Shown: positions 7,467-58,501 of the stretch, piece by piece | Layout: every line of letters starts with the position of its first letter | How positions within the stretch are numbered: the first letter of the stretch is position 1 | DNA from: Rhynchopus sp. YZ270_cl-10 | Lineage: Eukaryota | DNA: 64,000 nt | Direction: 5' to 3' | Assembly (NCBI GenBank): GCA_964035575.1 | Contig: OZ037836.1 | Span: 1,550,001 to 1,614,000, forward strand | Position numbers and translations under genes: made by a program | The notes under the pieces: model-generated | The model's database searches: none | What the model was told of the DNA's origin: nothing | Seen by the model: only the letters and a program-made list of their open reading frames with translations

Positions 7467-7557
7467 ATAAATAGTCATTATTTTTCCCAAAAGAAGAAAT
7501 CTTCTTTTTTTTTTTTTTTTTTTTTTCCAGATTTTACATAGATGGTAGACTAAAAAA

Positions 7558-7649
7558 AAGTCTGGCGAAAAGTCTGGCGAGAAAAAAAAGTCTGGCAGAG
7601 TCTGGCAGACTCCAGATTTTTTGAAAAGTCTGCCAGACTCTGCCAGACT
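7558..7649. repeat. AGTCTGGC motifs in direct then inverted orientation (foldback TIR-like relic)
   Basis: AGTCTGGC x4 followed by TGCCAGACT x2. Confidence 0.55.
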
Positions 7650-8629
7650 ACCATCTATGAATGATTTTTTGAAAAAAAGAAGAAAAAAAAAAAAAATCTT
7701 CCTGGAAGAAACTGTGATTTTTAGACTAAAAATCTTCAGTGCGAGAACCCTGAGCTCGAGGGGGGCGGTTTTTAGCACGTTTCAACTACTCTTTTTTTCC
7801 AGCACCTTCGTCCAACCGTGAGGTGTTTGTATTTTCAACTTTTCTTATTTTGTGTGCATACCAACGAAGTGCTCTCTGGGGATTCGATAACCCGCGTCCG
7901 CCGATGAACGGTGAGGCGTTTGCACTCTCAGCTACCTTTTTTGCCGTTTTTTATTGACTTTAGCCCTCGCGGAAACCCTGAACATCAGGCCAGGAGGGGG
8001 GAGGGAGGGAGGGACACATGAAACAGATCGTCCATGCAATGAATGTTATTGTATTACCACCTGTAGTGCACGTTACCTATACCCTCGTGGAGAGAGTGCG
8101 TGGATTGCTTCCGCAAGACCAAGAGACACACCTCTCTCATCAGGTAAAGAAGAGCGGGCACATGACCCTAATCCCCCCTCACAGACCCGCCATTTACATT
8201 GTGGGTGCTATTTCCGTTTCACGCTATTTATCTGGATCTGTATATTTTTTTTAAAAATTCTTTTTGGGGGGACTTTTCAAAAAAAACCCCAGGAAAGAAG
8301 AACCGGTGTGTTCCATACTCGCGAGAAGTTTAGCCTTTGAGAAAAAAAAGAGGTTTTTAAAATAAAAGTTGCTTTGAAGGGTTCAGGGGCGACTGACAGT
8401 TCATACTGAGGCGACTGTCGATACTACAAAAAAAAGGTCCACGATATAGCTCCCCTTTTAGTTATTTCGTGTTCTCAACACCTCCTGCAAAGCGTACTCC
8501 TTCTATTTGCTCTCTGTTAAGGATCCTGTGAAGACAAAATCGTGGCTGCTATCTAGTGATAGCAGCAGACCTAATACTAACCGTTGGTTCGTCGGTTCAC
8601 CCTTAAAAATGGGGTTTTTTTTGGGATGG

Positions 8630-9114: not shown

Positions 9115-9285
9115 GCTCTAATTAGAGTGTTAGGGTATAATTAGAGTCTGGGGTTTTGGGCCAAGTTAGAGTCCAGTTAGAGTATAATTAGAGTCGCTTT
9201 TCTTTAATTAGACTATAATTAGAGTGCAGTTAGAGCATAATTAGACTCTAACTGCACTCTAATTATAGTCTAATTAGAGTATAAC
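9115..9285. repeat. Cluster of (AA)TTAGAG/CTCTAA motifs in both orientations (TIR-like relic)
   Basis: More than 10 TTAGA(G/C) motifs including palindromic CTCTAATTAGAG. Confidence 0.55.
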
Positions 9286-10570
9286 AACAGGCTTCTTGTA
9301 GGTGCAAACGCCTTACGGAATCGGTTCCCCTAAGGTTCCTCTGTAGGCACCAGGTGCCCAGGTACCCACATAGCTGAGAATAAGACTTGGGGACCAGGGA
9401 CCCGGTTATTCTCAGCAGGACTGGACAATATGTGTCAGCTATGGGTACCCAGGTACCCAGACTCGCGCAGTGGCACATGCCCTCAAGTGTGACCCACACA
9501 TGAGGGAATGCGACACCGCAAAAACTCTTCGTGCACCTTCGGTGCAATGCTGCAGACAGGACAAACAGCGTTGGACTCAGAGGAATGCCTGCTGTGCAGG
9601 TATCAAACCATGAGAACCAACTCCCAGCAACAAGGGGCGCCTTTTGGCGGGCGTTGTTGAGGGTGTTTGGGGTGCAAAGTTTTCCACAATTTTGATGCGC
9701 GGGTACAGAAGTGTTGTCTTGTTCTTTCATCTCTAGGAATGTAAATGCCAATCGGGTTTAACTATCACTAAGGGGTCGAAGGGGGTAATCCAAGTATCAA
9801 AGGTTGTGTCGACGGGAAAGCTATGAGTATACATTCATTTCATCCGCAGAATAACTACTTATGAACCCAGGAGAGATCCAAGCCTCGCGCTAAACCACCA
9901 CCCGCGATTGAATTAGATGTTACAAGAAAGAGAATTCCTAACAAAACAACACCCTGCCCCATACACACAGACCACCCACAAGGAGTGTGAATTGTGCACT
10001 GGTTTTCTGGGGGAACAAACAATATTTTCTTGTGTCTAGTCCTCTGCAAGCAGAGAACAGACTTTACACGCTGCGCACCACACTGAGTAACATGCGTTTG
10101 CATGCCGCTCTGCTTGGCACAATATGCTAGCATGTTGCTAACTGCATTTGCCTGCATTATTGGGCACCGCCACCCTCCACCTGGGCCAGCTACGCCACCG
10201 CCAAGAATCTGCTTCACCTTTTGCGGGGGGCTTCTTCGAACCTACTCACCACAAGGCTGTATGCGTGCATAGGACCAGCACATCTTCTTCTCCAGGGTGC
10301 ATGCTTCTGACGTCACCTTCACTGTGTGCGCAGTGCGTTCAAACGCATGCACGATGTCCACAGCTTGCGTAGTGTCCTCTGCAGAGCTGCGCACCAGGGC
10401 AGTCCCCTGACGCTGAACAGGTGTCTTGCAGCATTCACCTTTGCCAGCACCATGCCAACTGTGGCATGCTGTGTGGGGCGGTCTGATGAGCTGTTGCAAG
10501 TCTGCTGTCTGTCCTGCCGTAGCGCCCAGGGTTCAGGGTTGACACCCTGCACAAGAGGGTATATCTTGTC

Positions 10571-10629: not shown

Positions 10630-10844
10630 ATGGACGTGCACTTCGAGGATTTCAGAGCGAATCAGCACACAGTCGAGGTGGGTGCAGATGACACAGTGGA
10701 GGGCTTGCGGCGGAAGGTGGCGTCTGCAATGGGGTTGCCTGAAGACAGCTTTTGCATGAATTTCGGAGGCGAAGCGATGGGAGAAGGAGCGGACATGACG
10801 CAGCTGAGTGCTGGTGACACAATCATCCTCACGAAGACGAAGAA
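10630..10844 (+). pseudogene. Ubl-LRR gene 1, 5' half (ubiquitin-like domain), interrupted by an insertion
   Basis: MDVHFEDFRANQHTVEVGADDTVEGLRRKVASAMGLP...GDTIIL nearly identical to intact paralogs; frame resumes after a TSD at 19408. Confidence 0.85.
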
Positions 10845-10918
10845 GGGGGCAATTAACGTCTGACCAACCGCCAAGTGGGGCCCCTGGACGCCGTGTTCGC
10901 ATGGTACTGAGTCAGCGT
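10845..10918 (+). ncRNA. Candidate HDV-like ribozyme at the 5' end of the insertion
   Basis: P1 GGGGGC/GCCCCT (G1-U), P2 CTGAC/GTCAG, P3 CC/GG with L3 GCCAAGT, P1.1 CC/GG, P4 GCCGTG-TTCG-CATGGT, J4/2 ACTGA; P2-P3 junction is non-canonical. Confidence 0.5.
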
Positions 10919-11484
10919 GGGCGGCCGCCTCTCCAATGATGGATTCGCTCGGGACCGGAGGAGGAACAAGCCGATGTGGGAACCCTGGTTATTAACACAA
11001 CATCACAGTCAATTTCGGGCAGATCACCAGCTTATGTAGGCTACGCAAACCCCTTCGAGGGGTTTCAAGGATCTGTTACCTGTGCGGTGACTGGGAGTGT
11101 GTTGATGCCGATGAGGGGATCCCAGGTACAAGAAGGAAGCGTTGCCGGTGTCTCTACTGGTGACGGAATATTGTTGCTGTTCCTGTGTTGTCGTTTGACC
11201 GCATGGGAACGTTTTGTTGCTTTGTTGGTGCGTACACTGTATGTGAAACAACTGTGGATCAGCAGGTACGTGCTCTTGTGTATTCAGTGTGGTGTGTTGT
11301 AGTTTTGTTCAGTTCAGTTCAGTTTTCATCTTTTTGCCGTAGTAGAATTCTTGTGTTATGTGTTTAACCTCAGGCTGTGTACACCGTAGTGAAACATCTG
11401 TGGATCTGCAGGTGCGTGCTCTGTCGTTAATTCAGTGTGGCATGTTGTAGTTTTTGGTCTGTTTTTACGTTTTTTTTTTTTTTT

Positions 11485-11730
11485 GGGAGATAGTCAGACT
11501 TACCCTACCCTATTTTGAAAAAGTTCAGACTTGCCCTAAAAATAAGTTCAGACTTGCCCGAAAATAAGTTCAGACTTGCCCTAAAAGTGTTTTTAGGGCA
11601 AGTCTGAACTTATTTTTAGGGCAAACACTTTTTTTAGGGCAAGTCTGAACTTTTTTAGGGCAAGTCTGAACTTTTTTAGGGCAAGTCTGAACTTATTTTT
11701 AGGGTAAGTCTGAACTTATTTTAGGGCAAC
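11485..11730. repeat. MULE left TIR built of about 20-23-bp AAGTTCAGACTTGCCCTAAAA units in both orientations
   Basis: Units read directly; orientation flips around AAAAGTGTTTT. Confidence 0.9.
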
Positions 11731-13883
11731 AAGTCAGGCCACTTTGGCTGGGGCACTCTTGGCGCCCCATGTGGTATGACTTGTTTTATTGCCCTAAAAT
11801 GCCTAACCGAGCCGGAGCCCAAAAATTGATGCCAGAAACCACCAGCCACCCGGAAAGGGTGAACAGGCAGTCCACGTTGGGCCAGAACCGGTTACAAAGG
11901 AAGCCGTGTTCTGGGGCAACGTGGGGCGCAAAGTTTTACAATTTTCATGCACGGGTGCTCCACAAATTACCAAGTATTCCTTCTTTGTTGAATTGAGAGA
12001 GAGTCAGTGTTTAGCTACCACGCGGGTTTGCTTAGAATCCTTCGAGGCCGGCACAATTTTATTTATGTGGTCGGTTAAGACATGCCTATTGAAGAACAAC
12101 GAGGTCATCGTTGAAAGGAGCGAACTCCCCTTCCCACAACATCTCTCACATTTCAACTCAGAATTCATACTTGGTTATTTGCTTTGTCCATACGCAATCA
12201 AATTGTCATGCTTTCAAGAGCATGCCTGGCCAAAATGCAACAACGTGGAAAAATTGTTGTTGTTCCAAAAGGCAACAAGACCACCCACAAGGGGTGTTGA
12301 ATTGTGCACTGTCCGGGGGAGCGCAAAGTTTTTTCCCTGTACACAGTGGACACATCTTTATCACTTTGTTCCCACGGGGACACATTTGGATACTGCACGC
12401 ATGCAGAAGTGCCAAACATGTCCGCACGTGGAGTGGAGTGTCCATCATGTTTTCCTGGTTTCCAAAAAGCAGTTTTCTTGCACTTACTATTTGCCCCGGT
12501 GTCTGGCAATAGAAGTGGCTAACATTGTAATGAGTAGCATATACATACCGTTGATCCAAATGAGTAAGGCGACCAACAAGTCCTCTGGACTTTTTTGTTG
12601 TGACGACAATCGCGGAGTAATCCCGGAGAATTACATCCTCGTATAAAAAGTTAAAGGTAGAGGTGGGGAAACTGTAGCTATAGAAATAGTTGTTGCAGTA
12701 GTGCAGACACCCGAGGGTGCACCACTATGCTTTTCTTTGGTTGCATCGACAATTTTACGTACATGATGTAGGAGCTGTACAATGTCGCCCAAAGGCTTTG
12801 TACTTACTGCAGGAATCGGTATTTTTTTTTTTTTTTGTTACTACTACGTCGTGTTCTATGAGGAGTCGCGTTTGGGTGCGGAAGTCTTTTTTCTGGTCTC
12901 TGTTCTGTACGGGTCTCGGATCGTGGTGCGGTACTGCGGTGCGGTACCTGAGAGTTTTTTAGAGTGATGATAAAGGTCAGAGGGTTTTCCCCTCCCATTT
13001 GTGTCATTATTTAATTTTGCTCGGAAAGTGGGGTGTCCTGGACACGAGGAAATTCAGTTGCATGGAAAAAAAGCTCCATACCGTAGGTTGCTGATTTTTC
13101 TGTGACGTCTGTTTCCGGTTTCCTTTTCGTACGTGTTTCGGTTCGCGATACCTGAGAGTTGAGAGTGTTGAAAAACGGAATGCGGGTTAATTAAAAACAG
13201 GGGGTCCGAGGGGCTGGTAGGGGGGGGGTGCGCAGGTCGCGGGATCATGGTGGGTGAAAAACAAGGGGGAGTGGGGTCACTTTTGTAATGATGTATGAAC
13301 TTTGCCCATGACACGCCTTTTTTGTTTTCCACATCAAACTGGACAAGATGAGGGGGGTATATTTACTATGCACATGAAAAGCGCTTGGTCCGAGCGAAGC
13401 GAGGGCCAGACGTCTTACAATCTGTACAGTGCCGTTAGTTCTAACGAGGCACAAAAGTGAACAAAACTAGAGATGGATTGTTGTCATACAGGTATTAGGT
13501 GCAGTGACAATTGGGGGGAAATGAGTATAAACACGGGAGAGGCAGGGGAGAAAACAGACTGTCCAGTCAGTGTGGTGTTACTTAGTGTTCCAGTTACTCA
13601 TAACAAGCGTCTTTTTAGTTCTTTTTTGAAAGGGAATTAACGCCAGTAGCGGTCACTCATAGGAACTCGTAGGGGAGGGGCTGGGAAGGGAATGAAATTC
13701 AGAAATTCCCAAACGCATCATCTTACTCACGGGTCCTTGCGTCACTCACAGCAATTCTGTGTGTGGGCTTGATGCAGTTCAGCGAATAGCTAAACAAAAC
13801 AGGTAATCTAAAGAAAAGGGGTGGGGGAAAAGAAAAGGGAAGAAGGGGAAAAAAACAAGTGTTAAAACGTCTAAAAAATCAAA

Positions 13884-16754
13884 TCAGATTTGAGTATTTG
13901 CTTTTGCGCGGATTCGCCTAGCAATTACCGCCATCTTGCCGTTTGGCGACACCTTTCTTTGCTTTGCTTCTTGCCGGAGAAGTGCAGCACTCAGGGAGAG
14001 AAGCGTATTCACCCTAAACGGCTGGTACTGCGGGGTGTACTCAGCAATGACGTCCTGAAGAGTGGCAAATGGACGCTCTTTTGCGTCTGTGTCCCAGACG
14101 ACGTATCCACGCACCCCGTCCACCTTCTTCGCAACAACCCAGTGGGTGTCGCTGAGGTCCAGTGGGGGGCCGAGCAGGACAATATCCTTCCCCTCACCAT
14201 CCTCGAAGCTCTCCTTGCCCCAGTGCCTCAGGAGAATTCCGCGACTCAAGCAGAGGTTACTCACAGTATTGTAGGTGAAGTAACCCCCCCCCTGCTGGTT
14301 CTCGCAGGTTTCGGCGGCATCAAAACTACTCATCACAGTTTGTAGCATAGACTGTGCATGCATTGCAACAGAATATGGCACCCTGGCTTCTTTGTGGAAG
14401 TCCAAGATCCAGTTCGTCGCAGCCCATCCGCACTCCCCTTCCACCCTGCCTTCTCCAGAAGCCACGTGAAGCGAGATGGGAACTCGCACATCATGTGCCA
14501 AAACCTCGACTGGCGCACCGCTCGAAACCTCCTGCACACGTTTCCCTGAGCCCCCCTTCATCCTCTTGCGCCTACTGCACTCCTGCACCCATTCGTCGGG
14601 TATTGGACGCTTGCACCTCACCTGCCCCCGGTACGTCGCAGCGTGACCCACCCCACCGCAGCGCGAACACTGCTTCTTCTTATCCCCGTTGCATTGTATG
14701 CGTGCCGGTCTACCGCGGGGGTTGGTGTCGCACATCATCGGAAGCAAGCCGGAAGCGTGGAGGTCAGTGAGGTCCTCCGGCATGGTCGTCGCTTCGGGTA
14801 CTGCGATGTAAATGCCCCTCAATGCTTCATCCTTCAGGAACGGCGCGACACAATTGAGGACGGAATCGTCCGAGGCACAAATGAGGTGGGAGCAGGGGAT
14901 GCCTTCCAAGGAGGGGCGACGGCACGTGCACGTGAGTTCGACGGTGTTGACAGTAAAGTGATCTCCGTTTGCAAGGACCTCAACAACGTTATCGTCTTGC
15001 GTCGGTGTGCGCACCAGCGTACGAGCTTTCTCCACAGAGTCCTGCACACGTCCCCTGAACACGGTGTTCACAATTTTGAACAGGCCGTTGGGAATGGGGA
15101 GGGAGGCCAGCTTCGCGGACCTCTCGGCGAACCACGTCATCGTCAGCCTCCTCCAGGTGACGTGCAGGGTGATGATGCCCTTACCCCTTGCGTCCAGCAA
15201 CGCAGCGTTCACACTCTCGCTTGCGTTCTGGGTGTATTCGTCGCAACGGTACCCCGACAAGTGGCAGTCAGCCCACTTATCCTTCACAGCTGTCAACGCT
15301 GTGCTCAGCCGCGAATGCGCACTGCTCTCCTCACGAATCGCACTTGCGAGCCCCTGCACCGTCTTCTCCTTCGCCAATCTGAACGTGGCGTTCAGCACCA
15401 CATCTCTCTTCCCGACAGACGACGCTCCCCCGGACATGTTCCCCGCCAGGTGCTTCACGCACGCCACACAGCAACAGTCCGGAAACGCAGCATCCAGCTC
15501 CGTTCCTAAGCCCTTCAGCCTGTCGGACAGGATCGTCTCCCCCCGCAGCTGGCCAAACGCACGGTTGAAGTGCGTGGCGAAGTACCCCCAGTTGGCGGTG
15601 TCCTCCATCGGGCACATCGTCACCGCCAAGGGGACGATGTTGCTGTTGGCGTCTTTCGCCACAGCAATGAGCAGCATGCCCACATAGTGCCCCGTCAAAT
15701 GACACCCATCTAGGAACACGATGGGGAGGCAGAGGCGGAACGCCCGGATAGCCTCGGGGAGAGCGACAAAGGAGCGGCGGAAGTGCTCCACTGGGGGGCT
15801 CCCTTCAGGTGCCCTGTTCTCCTTCTCGTAGCTGCTGTAGGTGCCGGGGTTTGCATCGCTCAGGCGCTTCAGGTAATCTGCGAATTTGCTGAACTCCTCG
15901 TCCATGCAGCCGTTCGCGACCTCCACGGCGCTACACCTCGCGCGCTGGACGGTGCTGCGGCTCACAGACACCCCCAGGTCCGACTTCAGTGACATCTTTG
16001 CATCGTTCGCAGACATGGCAGACAACATGCCGACGTTCTCCTGGGCGAGCACCTTGCTTGTCCCGTAGGAGGTGGCTCCGGCGGCACTGGAGGTGCAGGT
16101 GTGTACTCCCACCTTGTTCACCTTAACCCCGCCGGTCTTTGAGGGACCTGCGGTGGCTTTCCAGTTGCACGCCGGGTCAGTGCAGACCCACGTGCCGTAC
16201 CCCCCCTCACGCCTCGAGGTTTTTACACCCCACCCTCTCGCCAATCCATGCTTCGTGAGGAGGTCTTTAACCTCAGTGAGGTCGCGGTGCTCCGTTCCCG
16301 GGAGGTATGCCCTTAATAGGGGGCACGTGGTGTCTGCAGGTGCTGTTGGAGCTGTTGGAGTAGGTGCTGCTGTTGGTGATGATGTTGGTGATGCTGTAGG
16401 TGCTGCTGTAGGTGCTGCTGTAGGTGCTGCTGTTGATGATGATGTACGTGCTGCTGTACGTCCTGCTGTACGTCCTGCTGTACGTCCTGCTGTACGTGCT
16501 ACTGTAGGTGCTGCTGTTGATGATGCTGTAGGTGCTGCCGTATGTGGTATTGTCGATGATGGGACGTTGGGACTGTAGAAGGAGGCCTGAGAGGGAGGAT
16601 AAGACGGTACGGGCGCATGCATGAATCCGTGTCTGTATGACTGCCTCAGCCCCTCCAGACACTCGCTCTTCATCGAGTCATACTCAGGAGCAGAGAGTAT
16701 TCCAGCATCAAATAGCTCCTTGAGTTGCACCAAGTCTGACAAAGACGCGGGCAT
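13884..16754 (-). CDS. MULE transposase: SHOCT-like N-terminus, Zn DNA-binding domain, DDE core, SWIM, Zn knuckle, C-terminal Josephin-like domain
   Basis: IVFLDGCHL, ILSDRLKGL, CVKH, TQNASESVN (D-D-CxxH-E of MULE); CTC-x8-CSH (SWIM); CSRCGGVGH; likely start MPASLSD at 16754 (ORF track 16844). Confidence 0.9.
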   Translation of the reverse strand: MPASLSDLVQLKELFDAGILSAPEYDSMKSECLEGLRQSYRHGFMHAPVPSYPPSQASFYSPNVPSSTIPHTAAPTASSTAAPTVARTAGRTAGRTAGRTAARTSSSTAAPTAAPTAAPTASPTSSPTAAPTPTAPTAPADTTCPLLRAYLPGTEHRDLTEVKDLLTKHGLARGWGVKTSRREGGYGTWVCTDPACNWKATAGPSKTGGVKVNKVGVHTCTSSAAGATSYGTSKVLAQENVGMLSAMSANDAKMSLKSDLGVSVSRSTVQRARCSAVEVANGCMDEEFSKFADYLKRLSDANPGTYSSYEKENRAPEGSPPVEHFRRSFVALPEAIRAFRLCLPIVFLDGCHLTGHYVGMLLIAVAKDANSNIVPLAVTMCPMEDTANWGYFATHFNRAFGQLRGETILSDRLKGLGTELDAAFPDCCCVACVKHLAGNMSGGASSVGKRDVVLNATFRLAKEKTVQGLASAIREESSAHSRLSTALTAVKDKWADCHLSGYRCDEYTQNASESVNAALLDARGKGIITLHVTWRRLTMTWFAERSAKLASLPIPNGLFKIVNTVFRGRVQDSVEKARTLVRTPTQDDNVVEVLANGDHFTVNTVELTCTCRRPSLEGIPCSHLICASDDSVLNCVAPFLKDEALRGIYIAVPEATTMPEDLTDLHASGLLPMMCDTNPRGRPARIQCNGDKKKQCSRCGGVGHAATYRGQVRCKRPIPDEWVQECSRRKRMKGGSGKRVQEVSSGAPVEVLAHDVRVPISLHVASGEGRVEGECGWAATNWILDFHKEARVPYSVAMHAQSMLQTVMSSFDAAETCENQQGGGYFTYNTVSNLCLSRGILLRHWGKESFEDGEGKDIVLLGPPLDLSDTHWVVAKKVDGVRGYVVWDTDAKERPFATLQDVIAEYTPQYQPFRVNTLLSLSAALLRQEAKQRKVSPNGKMAVIARRIRAKANTQI

Positions 16755-16869
16755 TATTGTGTTGTTTTTAATGAATGCTGGAGATGGGGAGGGTAAGGAG
16801 GGTGAGTAGAGGATTAATCGTAAGCTTCTGTCTGCACACTTCATGGGTAACGTTGAGTCTCGCTCTCGT

Positions 16870-17041
16870 TGGTTTGGTTGTGTTATGATCGTTGTATCAA
16901 GTCTCGCTCTAGGCGGTCATGTATGTCAACATACGAAGAGATGGTTTGGTTGTGTTATGATCGTTGTATCAAGTCTCGCTCTAGGCGGTCATGTATGTCA
17001 ACATACGAAGAGATGGTTTGGTTGTGTTATGATCGTTGTAT
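16870..17041. repeat. 72-bp tandem repeat (about 2.4 copies) upstream of the transposase
   Basis: TGGTTTGGTTGTGTTATGATCGTTGTA at 16870, 16942, 17014. Confidence 0.9.
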
Positions 17042-17239
17042 TTTTAGAATCTGGCATCGCGTTCTACTGGGACGCAAGACTTCTGGACCCGAACCACCTG
17101 AAGGCGTCGAATCGTCCCGCAGAAGGAGATCATGAGGTGAAGAAAAAGTTGTCGTACAAGGTCGCTATTTTTGTTTTTGTTTTTGTTTTCGTTTTTGTTT
17201 TTGTTTTTGTTTTCGTTTCGCTTTTTTGAATAGAAGTCG

Positions 17240-17540
17240 AGTTAGTACAGAGGCTCTCCTTAGAAGGCAAAATTAGTCAATAATCCTGATTACCGACAAT
17301 AATCCGGATTATGTGACAAGGTGGATTACTTGTGTTTTGGTGGGAAAAAACCGCAAAAACGCATCTTAGACGCCCAGAAAGGCTCAAAACTGCCCAATTC
17401 TAGCTGGAATTGCAAAATTGGACACTTTTGGGGTGTGACCAAAAAAAAATTTGAGAGTCTAGTTATTACAGAGGCTCACCTTAGAAAATAGTCAATAATC
17501 CTGATTACCGACAATAATCCGGATTATGTGACAAGGTGGA
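17240..17540. repeat. Two direct repeats of about 85 bp containing palindrome ATAATCCGGATTAT
   Basis: TAGTCAATAATCCTGATTACCGACAATAATCCGGATTATGTGACAAGGTGGA occurs twice. Confidence 0.85.
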
Positions 17541-17749
17541 CTGTTGTGGCAAAACACTATTTAAAGTTAACGTGCGGAGGGTGAGGAGGAGGAGTGAGGA
17601 GGAAAAGTTGCATACCATACGTTGCTCATTTCACTACCAGGACTCGTCGTCGCGAATAGCCTATACGTGCCCTAAACAGAACGCAAAAACGACGACCGCC
17701 GGGCTCTGTGACCCAAGAGCCCCCAGCTTGCCCAATAAATAAGTGCAGG

Positions 17750-17965
17750 GTTGCCCTAAAAAAGTTCAGACTTGCCCTAAAAAAGTTCAGACTTGCCCTA
17801 AAAAAGTTCAGACTTGCCCTAAAAAAAGTGTTTGCCCTAAAAATAAGTTCAGACTTGCCCGAAATAAGTTCAGACTTGCCCTAAAAACACTTTTAGGGCA
17901 AGTCTGAACTTATTTCGGGCAAGTCTGAACTTTTTCAAAATAGGGTAGGGTAAATCTGACTATTT

Positions 17966-17968
<3 letters not shown>
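17750..17968. repeat. MULE right TIR
   Basis: Reverse complement of left TIR with unit-number differences. Confidence 0.9.
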
Positions 17969-18004
<36 letters not shown>

Positions 18005-18052
18005 GTTAGTAGAAGAAGGGATCTGCGAACATTCATTCGCAGGTGGGTACAA

Positions 18053-18695
18053 GTTGTCGCCGTGGCATTCAGCTACGGTGCAGAAGAGGCAGTAGGGCAG
18101 ACCAACGTCTGTGCTAGAAGGAAGAGGTTAAACTTTCAGGGTGTATGCACTGTACGTGAAACAACTGTGGATCTGCAGGTACATGCTCTGTTGTTTTTCC
18201 AATGTGTTTGTTTTTGTTCTATTTTCACGTGCTTTGGTACGTTGATAGATGAAGGAGTTGTCGCCGTGGCATTCAGCTACGGTGCAGAAGAGGCAGTAGG
18301 GCAGACCAACGTCTGTGCTAGAAGGAAGAGGTTAAACTTTCAGGGTGTATGCACTCTGCAGGTACATGCTCTGTTGTTTTCCAATGTGTTTGTTTTTGTT
18401 CCATTTTCACGTGCTTTGGTACGTTGAAGATGAAGGAGTTGTCGTCGTGGCGTCCAGCTACGGTGCAGAAGAGGCAGTAGGGCAGACCAACGTCTGTGCT
18501 AGAAGGAAGAGGTTAAACTTTCAGGGTGTATGCACTGTACGTGAAACAACTGTGGATCTGCAGGTACATGCTCTGTTGTTTTTCCAATGTGTTTGTTTTT
18601 GTTCTATTTTCACGTGCTTTGGTACGTTGATAGATGAAGGAGTTGTCGTCGTGGCGTCCAGCTACGGTGCAGATGAGGCAGTAGGGCAGACCAAC
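18053..18695. repeat. 204-bp tandem repeat (about 3.3 copies; second copy 181 bp)
   Basis: Units start at 18053, 18257, 18438, 18642; diverged relatives (GTGAAACAACTGTGGATC...GCAGGT) at about 11240 and 11390 on the other side of the MULE. Confidence 0.9.
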
Positions 18696-19407
18696 TACCA
18701 AATGTAGGGTCTGTGCTACGCGGAAAGGCTGGTACTTGAGTTTGTTCACTGTTTGTTGTAACTCCTTCCCTGCCGGCACTCCCTTACTTGTAAGGAAGAA
18801 GTTACAACTTTCTCTGTACAAATCAGGGGAATTTTGTGTGGCCGTCTGCCATATTGTGTGGACATGTTAGCTGACGGTGCTGCTGTTTCTTTTACAGCAA
18901 CACTGCTCTTGCTGTTGATTTTTCTTTTTCATTTTTACTTTTTAATGTTTCGAAAAACGGAGGTTAATGTTTCCGGTTCGGGCCTGGACTCCGACCCCTA
19001 CTTTTGCTGACGCGTACGAACGGTCGTGAACCGTCCCCACTCTCTTACGGTGCGGGCACCGCGGTAACGGTGGCTAGGAAGAAGGGAATCACCCAGAACC
19101 ACTAATCGCAGCCTGACAGGCACCGAACCTCGGGTGAGAATCCCCTCCTGTCAGCCCTGTTCGAAGTACCTATTTTGTTTGACCTTCTTGTCTTTTTGAC
19201 TTTTTGACTTTTCTTTTATGCTATCGAACAGTGCACCCCCAGTAGTGTTGGCATGCATACCTGGGCTGGTCGGCTTGCCGATCTGTTCCAGGGACTGGGG
19301 TAAAGTGCCATTAAACGCAGCAGGTACCTGTGTTTTTTGGGGGTCTTTTGGTTGGGAAGGTCACAGAAAGAAGGCCCGGCCTGCCAGAGACCTAAAACGG
19401 ACCCCTA

Positions 19408-20056
19408 CCTCACGAAGACGAAGAAGCAAGAAGCCATTGCAGTGCTTCATGCGTTGGGTGTGACCGACATCACAGCCGAGAAGTTGGAGAGTGTGGAGGA
19501 TCCTGAGGTGGCGTGTTTGCTTCTGCAGGCAGAGGTTGCGACTGTCATTCCGAATAAGTTCTTGTCAAGCACTTCGTTGACGAGACTTGATCTCAGTGCT
19601 GTGTCCATTGTGACTCACATTGGAGACGGCTTCCTGTACAACTGCACCTCGTTGACAAGTATTGACCTCTCTGGGTTGGGCAATGTTACGCAGGTTGGTT
19701 CGTTCTTCCTTGCGGGCTGCATCAGCTTAACGACCCTGGAATTATCCCCACTCAATAACGTGACGCAGGTTGATGCGGGCTTCTTTTGGAACTGCACCAG
19801 CTTAACCACCCTAGATTTGTCACCACTCAGCAATGTGACACAGATTGGTAGCATTGGTATTAGCGGTTTAGGAGGTACGTATTTTGCTGGGAACTGCACT
19901 TCATTGACGAGCATTTACCTTTCCGGCTGCAGCAGTGTTGTGTCCAACGAAGTGAGGAACGGCGATCTGAGCGAGCTTGTGGTTGAAGCACGTCCGAAAC
20001 GAAGCAGAGACGAATCCCCCGAGCAAAGCCAGAAGCGACGGAGACACGCACAATGA
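19408..20056 (+). pseudogene. Ubl-LRR gene 1, 3' half (5 LRRs + NLS-like tail)
   Basis: LTKTKKQEAIAVLHALG...RPKRSRDESPEQSQKRRRHAQ*, collinear with intact paralogs. Confidence 0.85.
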
Positions 20057-36830: not shown

Positions 36831-36960
36831 GGGATACACACAACGTACACAAAAAGAAAGAATATAAACAATGTTTTCGTACATGGTGTCGAAGTCACGT
36901 CCAGCCTCCACGCGGAGTATCCCGGGCAACGATCCGTCACACGGATCGGCCAAGTGGACG
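36831..36960 (+). ncRNA. HDV-like self-cleaving ribozyme (copy 1)
   Basis: P1 GGGATAC/GTATCCC, P2 CGTCCA/TGGACG, P3 GCC/GGA with L3 TCCACGC, P1.1 CC/GG, GCAAC, P4 GATCCGT/ACGGATC, J4/2 GGCCAAG; G1 is the first base of the element. Confidence 0.85.
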
Positions 36961-44589: not shown

Positions 44590-45362
44590 CTCGTTAACCA
44601 CCCTGGATCTCACACCACTCAACAACGCGACGGTGATTGGCAATAACTTTCTTTGCTCCTGCGTCTCTTTAGCCACCCTGGATCTGACACCACTCAACCA
44701 CATGACGGTGATTAGCAGTGGCTTTCTTTCCGGCTGCACTTCTCTAACCAACCTGGATCTGACACCACTCAACAACGTTACGAGGATTGAGAGTAACTTT
44801 CTTCACTACTGCCAAGGTTTAACCACCCTGGATCTCACACCACTCAACAACGCGACGGTGATTGGCGATCGCTTTCTTTCCGACTGCAGCTCTTTAACCA
44901 CTCTGGATCTGACACCACTCAACAACATGACGGTGATTAGCAGTAGCTTTCTTTCCGGCTGCAACTCTTTAACCACCCTGGATCTGACACCACTCAACAA
45001 CGTTACGCGGATTGAGCATTACTTTCTTCGCGGCTGTAAATGTTTAACCACCCTGGATCTTACACCACTCAACAACGTGACGGCGATTGGCGATAGCTTT
45101 CTTTGCGACTGCAGCTCTTTAACCACCCTGGATGTGACACCACTCAACAACATTACGAATATTGAGCGTTACTTTCTTTACGGCTGCAACTCTTTAACCA
45201 GCCTGGATCTCACACCACTCCACAACGTGAGGATGAGCAGGTGTGGCAACGCCTTTCTTGCCGGCTGCACCTCTTTAACCACCCTGCATCTGACGCCTGA
45301 ACAACGTGACGGGTGATTGACGATAGCTTTCTTAACGGATGCAACTCTTTAACCACCCTGGA
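44590..45362 (+). pseudogene. Ubl-LRR gene 5, middle part (about 10 LRRs, indels near 45295-45315)
   Basis: LDLTPLNN repeats resume right after the TSD. Confidence 0.85.
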
Positions 45363-47749
45363 CCCGACGACGGACCGCCCCCCATAGCACTTTTTACAGT
45401 GTGCGCAGGAGTCACTACATAAAGTAACAAAAAAAAAAAAGTTTGGGCACATTTAGTGCACCCTATTATACCTTCTATTCAGTAGAATAGTTGGTATATG
45501 AAACAATTAGAAAAGCTGCCACGGGAGCAATCTGGCTCAGGTCAATGTTTTATATCATCTAATTTTTGTTTTTACCCATGTAACCCCGGAGTGTTCTTTT
45601 CATTCGTGTGGTATGTCACCAGTGCGTGTGCGGGCACAGCCGACACGCAATCTCTGTAGGACGGGGTGCATGGGTTAGCGTACTATGTTTTTAGCTTTGT
45701 ATATTTTCCTGCGCGTTGTTTTGTCGCCAATGTGTGGCATCGAGAGCAGTGCGACTCGGGTCGACTGCGAGAGGTTGTTGATAGTGTGCGGGCACAGCCG
45801 ACACACAATCTCTGTTAGGACTGCGCGCTTCCCGGGACAATATCCTACCCTTCTTTCTTGCTTTGCTTTCTTTTCTTTTTGGAGGAGGTGTATGCTGGGC
45901 TTTTTTTGTGCCCTCAGAGATTTAAGCGACCCTGCACCTACTTTACGACCATGCAGAGCTTTTTGTTTTTCTTGCTTTTGTTGCTTTGGTACTAACCTGC
46001 GGCGGTGTTGTGCACCTTTTTGCGTGTTCCACTCTCGCCGTTGTTTAGAGAATGAGGAGGTACCAGTCATTTGTTCCTCCCATTGGAATGACTGGTTAGT
46101 TTTGATGTTTATTTTATTTTTCGGTGACATGACACTTGTGACATATCGTAGGAAATCTTTTAGTATGCGCGAAGACGATTCTTGTGCTCCTCATTCTCCC
46201 CCACACTATGTCAATACAACAGGTTAGACCGTTTGGTCTGGGAGGGTTTCGGGTTTCTTCTTTCTCTCAGTTCAATCTTGAACAATTTCGAGAGGAGTTT
46301 TATTTATTTTTCAAAAAGTGTGAGGAAGCGTTCCAACTTTTCAACCTCTTCCCCAATTTACCTTTCACGCCTTTTTTACCCTCCCCCGTTTTTAGAATCA
46401 ACAGAGAGTGTACGTTAAGATTTTGCCGCTAGAGAGCGTACCTGGAACTTGCTCGACATATTATATTTTTTCATTACGAGCGGCAGGGCCTTTTCTAAGT
46501 CCATGGGCCCATGGCACCCCTCCGAAAACACACTTTTTTTCTGTACAAATGCCACACGTAAAAAAAATATTTTTTCTGTACAAATGCCACAGGCAAAATA
46601 TTTTTTCTGGACTTTTGCCACATGGGAGGTGGGGGGCGGAGCCCCCACCCACCGGCCCCCAAAAAAAATTCTTTAAAAAAAAAGGAAAAAGAAACACACA
46701 GGGATGATATATCTTGGGGGTACCTCACACAAACCTCTAAGAGTGACCAGAACTGGCCTCATGAACAAAGTGACCCCGTCACAGCCAGAACGCGACCCAA
46801 TTGGTCAAACGCCGAAGGAAAAGGAAGCATGCAGCATGGCGAAAGGAAAAAGGTAGCGTACCGTGCGCCTGCGGCGCAAGATTGCAAGCCACCCATGACA
46901 TAGTTTGGCTGTAAAATGTGCAATTTTAAGCACAATATTTTGAAATGTTGCGTACCGTGGCTTCGCCAAAACTTTCGTTCAGCAAAATATGGAAGTAACA
47001 TTTACGGGAACTGACGATAATGACCAACGACAGTGCCATTTGATGTCAACATTTTTTTAGAAATGTTGCGTACCGTGGCTTCGCCAGGAATCAGTTCTGT
47101 TTCGTATTTGCGTTAATTAGTCTTGGTTTCCCATCCCCTCCCTCCCTAGTTCATACGCAAGGGCATCTTCCCTTTCTGTGCACCGCTTAGTGGTGTCCTT
47201 ACGTCACTTTTGACCATACTTTTCTTTTCCTCACCCCCACCCCTTTGCTTTAACTTTGCTTGCACACCCCGACCCACCCGGAGAGGCCTGGGGACGGGAT
47301 AGTTCACAACCGCCCCTTCTCCTATTTGACTCATTTTTCCCCTTCTTCAACCCCCACCCCCGAAAAACCCCTCTCAAAAATATGAGGGGAGATGCCCCGC
47401 CAACGCACCGACCGGAAAGCTCGGAATGGGTTTTGAAAATATGCGGGGAGATGCCCCGCCAACGTACCGACCGGAAAGCTCGGAATGGGTTTCCGGGAGT
47501 TTTTTACGTGTGGCATTTGTACAGAAAAAAGTCATTGGCACCTCGGCCAAAATCGGGGTTTTTGGCTCAACTTAGAGCCACCCCTGACGAGCGGTCGTGT
47601 ACCGCCCCCGTTCATATTACGGTACGGGTACGTCTTTGTCCGGAAAAGCTCAGTAAATGGGATCATGTGATCAAGTCACTCTTTCAACACCTTGGTGCCG
47701 CATCTGCTATTCTTTTTGGCAGGGGTGGATCAAGTTTTTCAAGTATAAG
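45363..47749 (+). mobile_element. Non-coding 2387-bp insertion at the same LRR target motif
   Basis: CTCTTTAACCACCCTGGA (45345-45362) and CTCTTTAACCACCCTTGA (47750-47767); 3' hairpin 47691-47734 and terminus CAAGTATAAG. Confidence 0.75.
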
Positions 47750-50370: not shown

Positions 50371-50500
50371 GGGATACACACAACGTACACAAAAAGAAAG
50401 AATATAAACAATGTTTTCGTACATGGTGTCGAAGTCACGTCCAGCCTCCACGCGGAGTATCCCGGGCAACGATCCGTCACACGGATCGGCCAAGTGGACG
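50371..50500 (+). ncRNA. HDV-like ribozyme (copy 2)
   Basis: Same sequence as 36831-36960. Confidence 0.85.
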
Positions 50501-58128: not shown

Positions 58129-58371
58129 CTCTTTAACCACCCTGGATCTGACATCACTCAACAACGTTACGCAGCTTGAGGGGTATTTTCTTTCCCTCTG
58201 CGAAGCTTTAAGCAACCTGGCTCTGACACCGCTCAGCAACGTTGCGAGTATTGAGACTTGCTTTCTTAACGGCTGTAAATCTTTAACCACCCTGGATCTG
58301 ACACCACTCAACAACGTGACGGTGATTGCGAGTAGCTTTCTTTCCGGCTGCAACTCGTTTACCACCCTGGA
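58129..58371 (+). pseudogene. Ubl-LRR gene 6, three LRRs stranded between copies 2 and 3
   Basis: 243 bp = 18-bp TSD + 3 x 75 bp. Confidence 0.9.
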
Positions 58372-58501
58372 GGGATACACACAACGTACACAAAAAGAAA
58401 GAATATAAACAATGTTTTCGTACATGGTGTCGAAGTCACGTCCAGCCTCCACGCGGAGTATCCCGGGCAACGATCCGTCACACGGATCGGCCAAGTGGAC
58501 G
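58372..58501 (+). ncRNA. HDV-like ribozyme (copy 3)
   Basis: Same sequence as 36831-36960. Confidence 0.85.

Follow-up and report, generated by a model that had tools for sequence, protein, structure and literature searches.

A Ubl-LRR gene in the DNA analyzed here (64,000 nucleotides, the window) is split by an insert that is best explained, with a probability of roughly three in four, as a 2-kb non-coding and non-autonomous non-LTR retroposon, which uses a fixed site in Ubl-LRR genes and has a sister family with OTU and RT proteins as its partner. This estimate refers to the retroposon and its sister partner and excludes self-cleavage of the RNA fold predicted at the 5′ end.

Structure of the insert

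The sequence CCTCACGAAGACGAAGAA is found at both 10827 and 19408 and flanks an insert of 8563 bp (10845-19407). The original prediction gave the duplication as 18 bp, which holds, but formally the repeat is 18 or 19 bp because the base after both copies is a G. Excision of the insert plus one repeat copy restores an uninterrupted frame of 281 codons, and it is indeed Ubl-LRR gene 1 that is split, as its halves rejoin in frame and the gene is otherwise intact. The non-coding element lies in sense orientation relative to this gene. An intron reading of the insert was set aside, as its ends lack GT/AG. The region is organized as follows:

10630..10844, + strand: 5′ half of the host gene, ubiquitin-like domain (Pfam ubiquitin, E 3e-6), in frame with the 3′ half
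10827..10844, + strand: left copy of the target-site duplication, 18 bp
10845..11484, + strand: non-coding element, 5′ segment, containing two diverged internal-repeat copies (11227-11306, 11370-11470) and a T15 run
11485..17968, − strand: secondary MULE DNA transposon, transposase frame 13884-16916, TIRs at ~11485-11729 and ~17728-17968
17969..19407, + strand: non-coding element, 3′ segment, containing a T34 run, tandem repeats (18052-18695) and a unique 3′ part
19408..19425, + strand: right copy of the target-site duplication, 18 bp
19426..20056, + strand: 3′ half of the host gene, linker and leucine-rich repeats (Pfam LRR_5, E 4.5e-13)

The MULE makes up 6.5 kb of the 8563-bp insert, its ends are identical at 34 of 36 positions (MULE Pfam E 5e-9) and it is bordered by the T15 and T34 runs. 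Four of ten cluster members (P0067, P0070-72; P numbers denote predicted proteins) read across its site free of the MULE, which arrived later, into an internal T run of this copy. Without it the insert measures 2079 bp with both T runs counted, in agreement with the approximately 2 kb proposed before. A junk frame of the 5′ segment belongs to a cluster of 11 members, and its exact sequence occurs on 6 contigs. Tandem repeats are present as well, but the units are 204, 181 and 204 bp and not uniformly 204 bp. As for the proposed hairpin end without poly(A), the absence of poly(A) was confirmed, whereas the hairpin is no better than shuffled sequences (z -0.92; -0.05 to -2.0 over eight windows) and has to be dropped; by the same measure the 3′ end of the window's autonomous element reaches z -5.0.

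The longest stop-free frame of the element spans 170 codons. A tblastx comparison with the autonomous element of the window gave nothing below E 0.04 and a Pfam scan of one long frame gave no match, and by these three measures an RT or endonuclease of its own is absent. Furthermore, the search for a tRNA, 5S or 7SL head, a trait of Pol III SINEs, gave 0 genes in ARAGORN and no such match in Rfam.

Copies at the same site and the sister family

Other copies of the element are known from junction-spanning predicted proteins rather than from DNA, and none of these covers both element ends. Three further paralogs (P0065, P0092, P0110) contain the full-length 5′ junction, the first residues being identical, and P0176 represents a 5′-truncated copy, in which the Ubl stops at the target and is followed by 25/25 residues identical to 18168-18242. 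The 3′ junction was found in seven further proteins, six of which enter Ubl-LRR linkers (P0054-56, P0138, P0089, P0090), while P0088 halts at the next codon and is compatible with such a linker. One junction search favored on-target junctions because its query included target residues; with element residues only, two of three proteins lie in Ubl-LRR linkers and the third is uninformative. The copies are nearly identical and form protein clusters of 10 and 11 members. Taken together, the junction-spanning proteins support the view of a non-autonomous, multi-copy and site-specific element. As read from the proteins, the target word follows the paralog on the left (TKTKK, TKTQK or TKSMK) as well as on the right (TKTKK, TKTQK or TKSMK), and a duplication that varies with the paralog fits target-primed retrotransposition.

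The host genes are tandem paralogs and one contig of 2.16 Mb holds four junction proteins, as would suit a single old insertion that was spread by tandem duplication or gene conversion without repeated transposition. We consider this quite unlikely, as the Ubl domains are only 53% alike (P0063 versus P0176) and the element frames 90-100%, the truncated copy directly adjoins the target, P0056 and P0090 have a junction register displaced by 1 nt, and element frames occur on at least seven different contigs. It is extremely unlikely that a site-specific recombinase placed a DNA element whose att core is the 18-bp repeat: the fixed site, the missing poly(A) and the lack of significant 3′ structure would agree with it, but both repeat copies track the local paralog sequence, the target is intact in 5′-truncated copies (P0176, P0172, P0192, P0195, P0058) and the proteins at the site are RT and not integrases.

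Retroposition of the element is further in line with coding pieces fused to Ubl at the same site. P0172 is an RT piece (29% over 1115 aa versus the window's ORF2; RVT_1 E 7e-20) without the endonuclease part, P0192 is a second RT-coding piece and P0195 codes for an OTU ORF1, its Ubl being 93% identical to that of P0176. The suspected sister family at the Ubl/linker boundary is supported by these pieces, and the idea of the gene family as a multi-element hot spot is supported as well. All of these site-sharing RT and OTU sister retrotransposons are truncated. An RNase H Pfam match was detected neither in the window's ORF2 nor in P0172. The sister 3′ end is carried by seven proteins, and in P0058 about 57 nt of it are lodged between two target copies. 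A weak match of the peptide of this P0058 insert at 45544 (E 0.09) was rejected as chance. The element probably has its terminus in common with a sister family:

19394..19408, + strand: terminal 15 nt, probably common to a sister family (two-frame back-translation of P0057/P0058 and P0179)

The right duplication begins with the final C of this terminus (19408), which belongs to both. The sister 3′ end and the RT/OTU pieces come from separate proteins, the sharing of the 15 nt being deduced by back-translation, and for proteins without contig assignment we infer an origin from the same genome. On these sequence comparisons, the OTU/RT sister family is the likely mobilizing partner. The LRR-targeting OTU/AP-endonuclease-RT element of the window has the same duplication length, likewise lacks poly(A) and has an HDV fold at base 1; it is nevertheless very unlikely to be the mobilizer, as blastn gave no common sequence (best match of 20 nt with E 0.047), target and 3′ end both differ and coding elements of another family sit at this exact site.

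Searches outside the genome gave no further copies: exact scans gave 0 matches for the ribozyme core in metagenome contigs and for the 3′ junction in viral contigs, and an RT-alignment scan of metagenomes returned 75 distant loci (21-32% identity), none with the ends of the element. No paper on this element or on any Ubl-LRR-targeting retroelement was found in a search of the open-access literature.

The predicted HDV-type fold at the 5′ end

The element's 5′ end can be arranged into the following predicted structure:

10845..10918, + strand: predicted HDV-type fold, double pseudoknot from base 1 (descriptor match)
10845-50/10880-85, + strand: predicted helix P1
10860-63/10912-15 with extension 10856-58/10916-18, + strand: predicted helix P2
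10864-66/10876-78, + strand: predicted helix P3
10868-69/10886-87, + strand: predicted P1.1
10890-95/10900-05, + strand: predicted helix P4 with UUCG loop
10867-10875, + strand: loop L3 of the fold, 9 nt, without U20 and G25
10907, + strand: candidate catalytic C in the C-N-R-A junction before P2

C-N-R-A is the form of the HDV-like catalytic junction. In accordance with the fold proposed originally at G1 of the insert, the descriptor finds all five helices, the G1-U pair (G10845-U10885) and this junction, with P1, P2, P3, P1.1 and P4 standing in double-pseudoknot order. With a descriptor written after the fold had been seen, 10845 is the sole match in the window, compared to 0 matches in 100 block shuffles and 1 in 20,000 local shuffles. 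A looser descriptor, with a chance rate of 1.5 starts per 128 kb, matches only 10845 and the three autonomous-element starts within the window, whereas a strict one recovers all three of these starts and misses 10845. The 5′ end therefore fits a modeled HDV-type double pseudoknot at base 1 far beyond chance. Free-energy folding did not recover the pseudoknot (z +1.6), as expected, and gives no support; pairing probabilities are low (P3 0.01, P4 0.07) in a nested-fold model, which cannot represent pseudoknots. In Rfam no ribozyme family matched up to E 1, and microRNA-type matches were discarded as palindromes below their own thresholds.

What had been overlooked before is L3, which has neither U20 nor G25. 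In one register, A/C takes the place of the U20-G25 reverse wobble; the other register gives C/A and leaves P3 mismatched. According to PMC3386971, the U20-G25 pair is perfectly conserved among natural variants, the matching A/C mutant of HDV is inactive and the C/A mutant of the alternative register is 232-fold slower. Changes of G25 also harm other HDV-like ribozymes (PMC13635239 and PMC3774820), and the catalytic junction is given as CRRA (PMC6326823), whereas the second base is U here. No natural HDV-like ribozyme without U20-G25 was found in a search of open-access texts; variants of L3 may be depicted in figures of PMC3414825 and of PMC3774820.

Hence, we slightly favor the same retroposon with a degenerate or non-catalytic fold, the 5′ end of which is set by an internal promoter or by protein binding; this competes with the cleavage step only. 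Some well-folded SIDER folds of trypanosomes are inactive (PMC4035085) and Pr77 also acts as a promoter (PMC5814959). On the other hand, the candidate catalytic C, P1.1 and every stem are retained, the full-length 5′ junctions begin at the identical base in 4/4 cases, and active hybrid SIDE ribozymes are altered from U to A somewhere in the catalytic region (PMC3414825). Furthermore, the diverged sister 5′ end of P0103 appears to fit the same fold with the same odd loop and different stems. The first back-translation test was too loose, as 2 of 15 tails (P0103, P0195) and 43 of 5000 shuffles passed, and the tighter one for P0103 was defined afterwards. Self-cleavage before G10845, as modeled, is possible but somewhat doubtful.

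Proposed mechanism and relation to known systems

Judged from its sense orientation, the element may be transcribed together with the host gene, and the 5′ fold would cut the RNA before G10845 or at least mark this position. The RT of the sister family would recognize the presumably common terminal 15 nt. The endonuclease of the same family is presumably of the AP type, as judged from the homologous ORF2 in the window; nicks by this enzyme in the two strands at the Ubl/linker boundary, spaced about 18 bp, would create the duplication. Incomplete cDNA would lead to 5′-truncated copies at the same site, as seen in P0176. The MULE came last and inserted into the internal T run in the copy analyzed here.

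It is a tentative and rather unlikely idea that a clan of target-specific retroelements partitions one Ubl-LRR family into base-precise sites, while the families at the Ubl boundary carry an active HDV-like ribozyme class without U20-G25 that standard searches miss. If the fold cleaves, descriptor searches have missed a ribozyme class, it departs from a signature that has been described as perfectly conserved among HDV-like ribozymes in nature, and a 74-nt substrate is available for mechanism studies. Even without cleavage, the RHS-type use of a coding gene family as a safe haven extends to a probable diplonemid. Moreover, several related endonucleases directed to different positions within one gene form a natural set for the study of specificity shifts of non-LTR elements, and the system is a source of disruption and of in-frame fusions (Ubl-OTU, Ubl-RT) in the LRR repertoire.

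The predicted fold shares the nested double pseudoknot, G1-U, a two-pair P1.1 and the C-N-R-A junction with the HDV, CPEB3, R2 and L1Tc ribozymes, but differs from HDV-like ribozymes by a 9-nt L3, a 6-bp P1, the missing U20-G25 and the missing Rfam match; a U/G pair in L3 is reported as conserved in L1Tc (PMC3386971). Drosophila R2 and the R2/R1 hybrid SIDEs resemble the present case with regard to a non-coding element, a 5′ HDV-like ribozyme and a fixed site with a fixed duplication; according to PMC3414825, the ribozyme frees the R2/R1 SIDE from the host co-transcript, the 3′ end is common to the partner and the R1 duplication is 14 bp. Here, the target is protein-coding instead of 28S rDNA and the duplication is 18 bp. 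The choice of a multicopy target is in line with the sequence-specific non-LTR elements of the R1, R2 and Tx1 groups.

RIME/ingi and NARTc/L1Tc are euglenozoan pairs of autonomous and non-autonomous non-LTR elements, the arrangement proposed here, and trypanosome elements carry an HDV-like ribozyme at base 1 (PMC3185411; PMC4035085), where a fold is predicted here. In contrast to RIME and NARTc, the element targets the Ubl-LRR family, is about 2 kb long and has no poly(A); it thus also lacks the poly(A) tail of the L1Tc/ingi clade, from which the related ORF2s differ by the absence of an RNase H Pfam match and ORF1 by its OTU domain. As in the trypanosome RHS (retrotransposon hot spot) genes, one site in a coding multigene family is used and two gene halves are left (PMC7563717), but here several families occupy different positions within one gene.

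Structure of the insert

The window contains a tandem array of genes in which a Ubl domain is followed by 25-residue LRRs, and the first of these genes is split at the Ubl/linker boundary by the non-coding element studied here (positions on the forward strand):

10827-10844 and 19408-19425, 18-bp target duplications
10845-19407, non-coding element
11485-17968, MULE, a later DNA transposon nested in the element

The 18-bp repeat, the 8563-bp insert, the nested MULE and the presence of internal repeats agreed with the original prediction, and a 281-codon stop-free frame is regained once the insert and one repeat copy are taken out. The assumed uniform 204-bp unit did not hold, as the internal repeats measure 204, 181 and 204 bp. 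Poly(A) is absent from the 3' end as claimed, but the hairpin proposed there folds no better than shuffled sequences. A CAG/GT motif with a U-rich tract behind it is present in every internal repeat (11263, 11409, 18176, 18359, 18561), and in the three 3' units the tract terminates in AG; this is intron- or trans-splice-like, yet kept in other copies of the element. Palindromic or inverted-repeat stretches at 7556-7656, 9195-9288 and 46535-47520 suggest further DNA transposon ends. LINE-type and MULE elements have been reported in Diplonema, with rigorous annotation yet to come according to the available text of PMC10161547.

No sequence shared with the autonomous element of the window was found. 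The latter, with an OTU-domain ORF1 and an AP-endonuclease/RT ORF2, has three starts in the window and is inserted into LRR repeats; the named sequence closest to its ORF2 belongs to Rhynchopus euleeides (50%-identity cluster), which makes a diplonemid the probable host. The 3' end of this element lacks poly(A) and folds into a strong hairpin (z -5.0), and the duplications flanking it, 18 bp long, end at 44590 and near 58130. The cluster of the predicted protein P0006 includes a Symbiodinium-named relative in which a single ORF contains OTU, AP endonuclease, RT and RNase H, which indicates that OTU-bearing non-LTR elements reach beyond the present host. OTU domains are known in Helentrons (PMC4067079, available text), and we found no report of one in a non-LTR ORF1 in the open-access papers searched.

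Other copies and their junctions

The element is real. Other copies were read at the protein level from gene-caller products (P numbers) running across its junctions. Clusters of 10 and 11 members that are 90-100% alike contain two of the element's junk frames, one exact junk-frame sequence is present on six contigs, and in one cluster the MULE site is crossed without the MULE in 4 of 10 members. At the 5' junction, three other Ubl paralogs (P0065, P0092, P0110) have the same final five element-coded residues as the window copy. P0176, a distant Ubl (53% to the Ubl of the window copy), stops at the target and continues with 25/25 residues of 18168-18242 or its repeat; judging by this match, it is a 5'-truncated copy.

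The 3' junctions lead into Ubl-LRR linkers in P0054, P0055, P0056, P0138, P0090 and P0089, and the last 17 residues of P0089 score best against such linkers in a third frame, with the top six matches in the window. P0088 ends at the codon after the junction, and a synonymous Leu codon would account for the stop. One 3'-junction search was biased toward the target; a separate search restricted to element residues, together with its cluster members, gave three proteins, two on target, one uninformative and none off target. As the target word differs between paralogs both left and right of the insert, the flanking repeat is target-derived. In P0058 the last target codon is changed from Lys to Asn, which fits an 18-bp and not a 19-bp repeat. 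Pattern sorting covered 167 proteins (150 of the 225 matches of one search and 17 earlier ones); many rows sorted as "other" were excluded by eye, being polyubiquitins or intact genes that have diverged.

The 5' fold

A double-pseudoknot descriptor, composed after the sequence had been seen, matched the window only at 10845-10915, compared with no match in 100 window shuffles and one in 20,000 local shuffles. Matches of a looser descriptor in the window were confined to base 1 of the non-coding element and base 1 of each of the three autonomous copies, at a chance rate of 1.5 starts per 128 kb (60 shuffles). In the HDV-like fold predicted at the first base, positions 20 and 25 (HDV numbering, loop L3) are not U and G: they are A and C in the register with perfect P3, and C and A in the alternative register with mismatched P3. 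The fold opening the autonomous element (36831-36958, 50371-50498, 58372-58499) is canonical and has the first ATG of ORF1 inside its J1/2 loop; that of the non-coding element is non-canonical.

The available text of PMC3386971 calls U/G at 20/25 perfectly conserved among natural variants including R2 and L1Tc, and describes the A/C mutant as inactive and the C/A mutant as 232-fold slower. Accessible parts of PMC6326823, PMC13635239, PMC4227795 and PMC3774820 also support the importance of G25. By contrast, hybrid SIDE ribozymes are described as active despite a U-to-A change somewhere in the catalytic region (PMC3414825, in part). We do not call the fold a bona fide HDV-like ribozyme, as it lacks one defining feature, and we put self-cleavage of the predicted fold at somewhat below even odds.

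P0103 is a Ubl continued at the target site by a different 28-residue tail, which on back-translation can encode a fold of the element type, in which loop type and P4 spacing match those of the element and the stems differ. In a tighter test this was the case for 1 of 15 tails, for 16 of 20,000 shuffles and, with a UUCG loop, for 1 of 20,000; the fold was first spotted by eye, and a looser back-translation test gave one false positive. The canonical loop could not be encoded by this tail in the tighter test. The resemblance is a lead from back-translated sequence; if true, the odd loop would be conserved across families and would not represent damage in a dead copy.

Sister elements and proposed mode of insertion

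P0172 is a Ubl fused at the same target site to a 5'-truncated RT ORF (RVT_1, E 7e-20), which is 29% identical to the window ORF2 over 1115 aa and has L1 ORF2p and R2 as best solved relatives. At this site P0192 joins a Ubl to the later part of a similar RT ORF (53/82 residues identical to P0172) and P0195 joins a Ubl to an OTU ORF1. P0195 and P0172 are predicted in-frame fusions of the host Ubl to the OTU (deubiquitinase-like) ORF1 and the RT ORF, respectively, via 5'-truncated insertions.

A differing 3' end lies ahead of the target in seven proteins (P0057, P0058, P0126, P0129, P0214, P0152, P0179), with P0057 and P0058 on the same 2.16-Mb contig as the window copy. Its reading in two frames fixed a 23-base overlap, with which 31 of 20,000 shuffles were compatible; the last 15 nt of this back-translation equal 19394-19408 of the window. 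We infer that the RT-coding elements at the site end in this way. Ubl domains with unrelated tails at the Ubl/linker boundary (P0112, P0155, P0156, P0157, P0163, P0180-82, P0189) may represent truncated sister elements or frameshifts. Foreign tails also recur at fixed linker/LRR points (P0090, P0106, P0135, P0175; P0102, P0120 and window ~45360; P0141, P0153) and suggest more elements and more sites in the Ubl-LRR family.

Apart from the link to a partner, the element has the properties of a non-autonomous non-LTR retroposon. We do not place the element in the L1Tc/ingi clade, as neither poly(A) nor an RNase H match was found, judged by the clade features in the available text of PMC5814959. 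In the simplest account the element would be a SIDE/NARTc-like passenger, whose transcript would be read together with the host gene, with the RNA 5' end set at G10845, the 3' end recognised by the RT of the sister family and insertion at the Ubl/linker boundary primed by the target. It would work in a way similar to the SIDEs of R2/R1 and, according to the available text of PMC7563717, to RIME in RHS genes.
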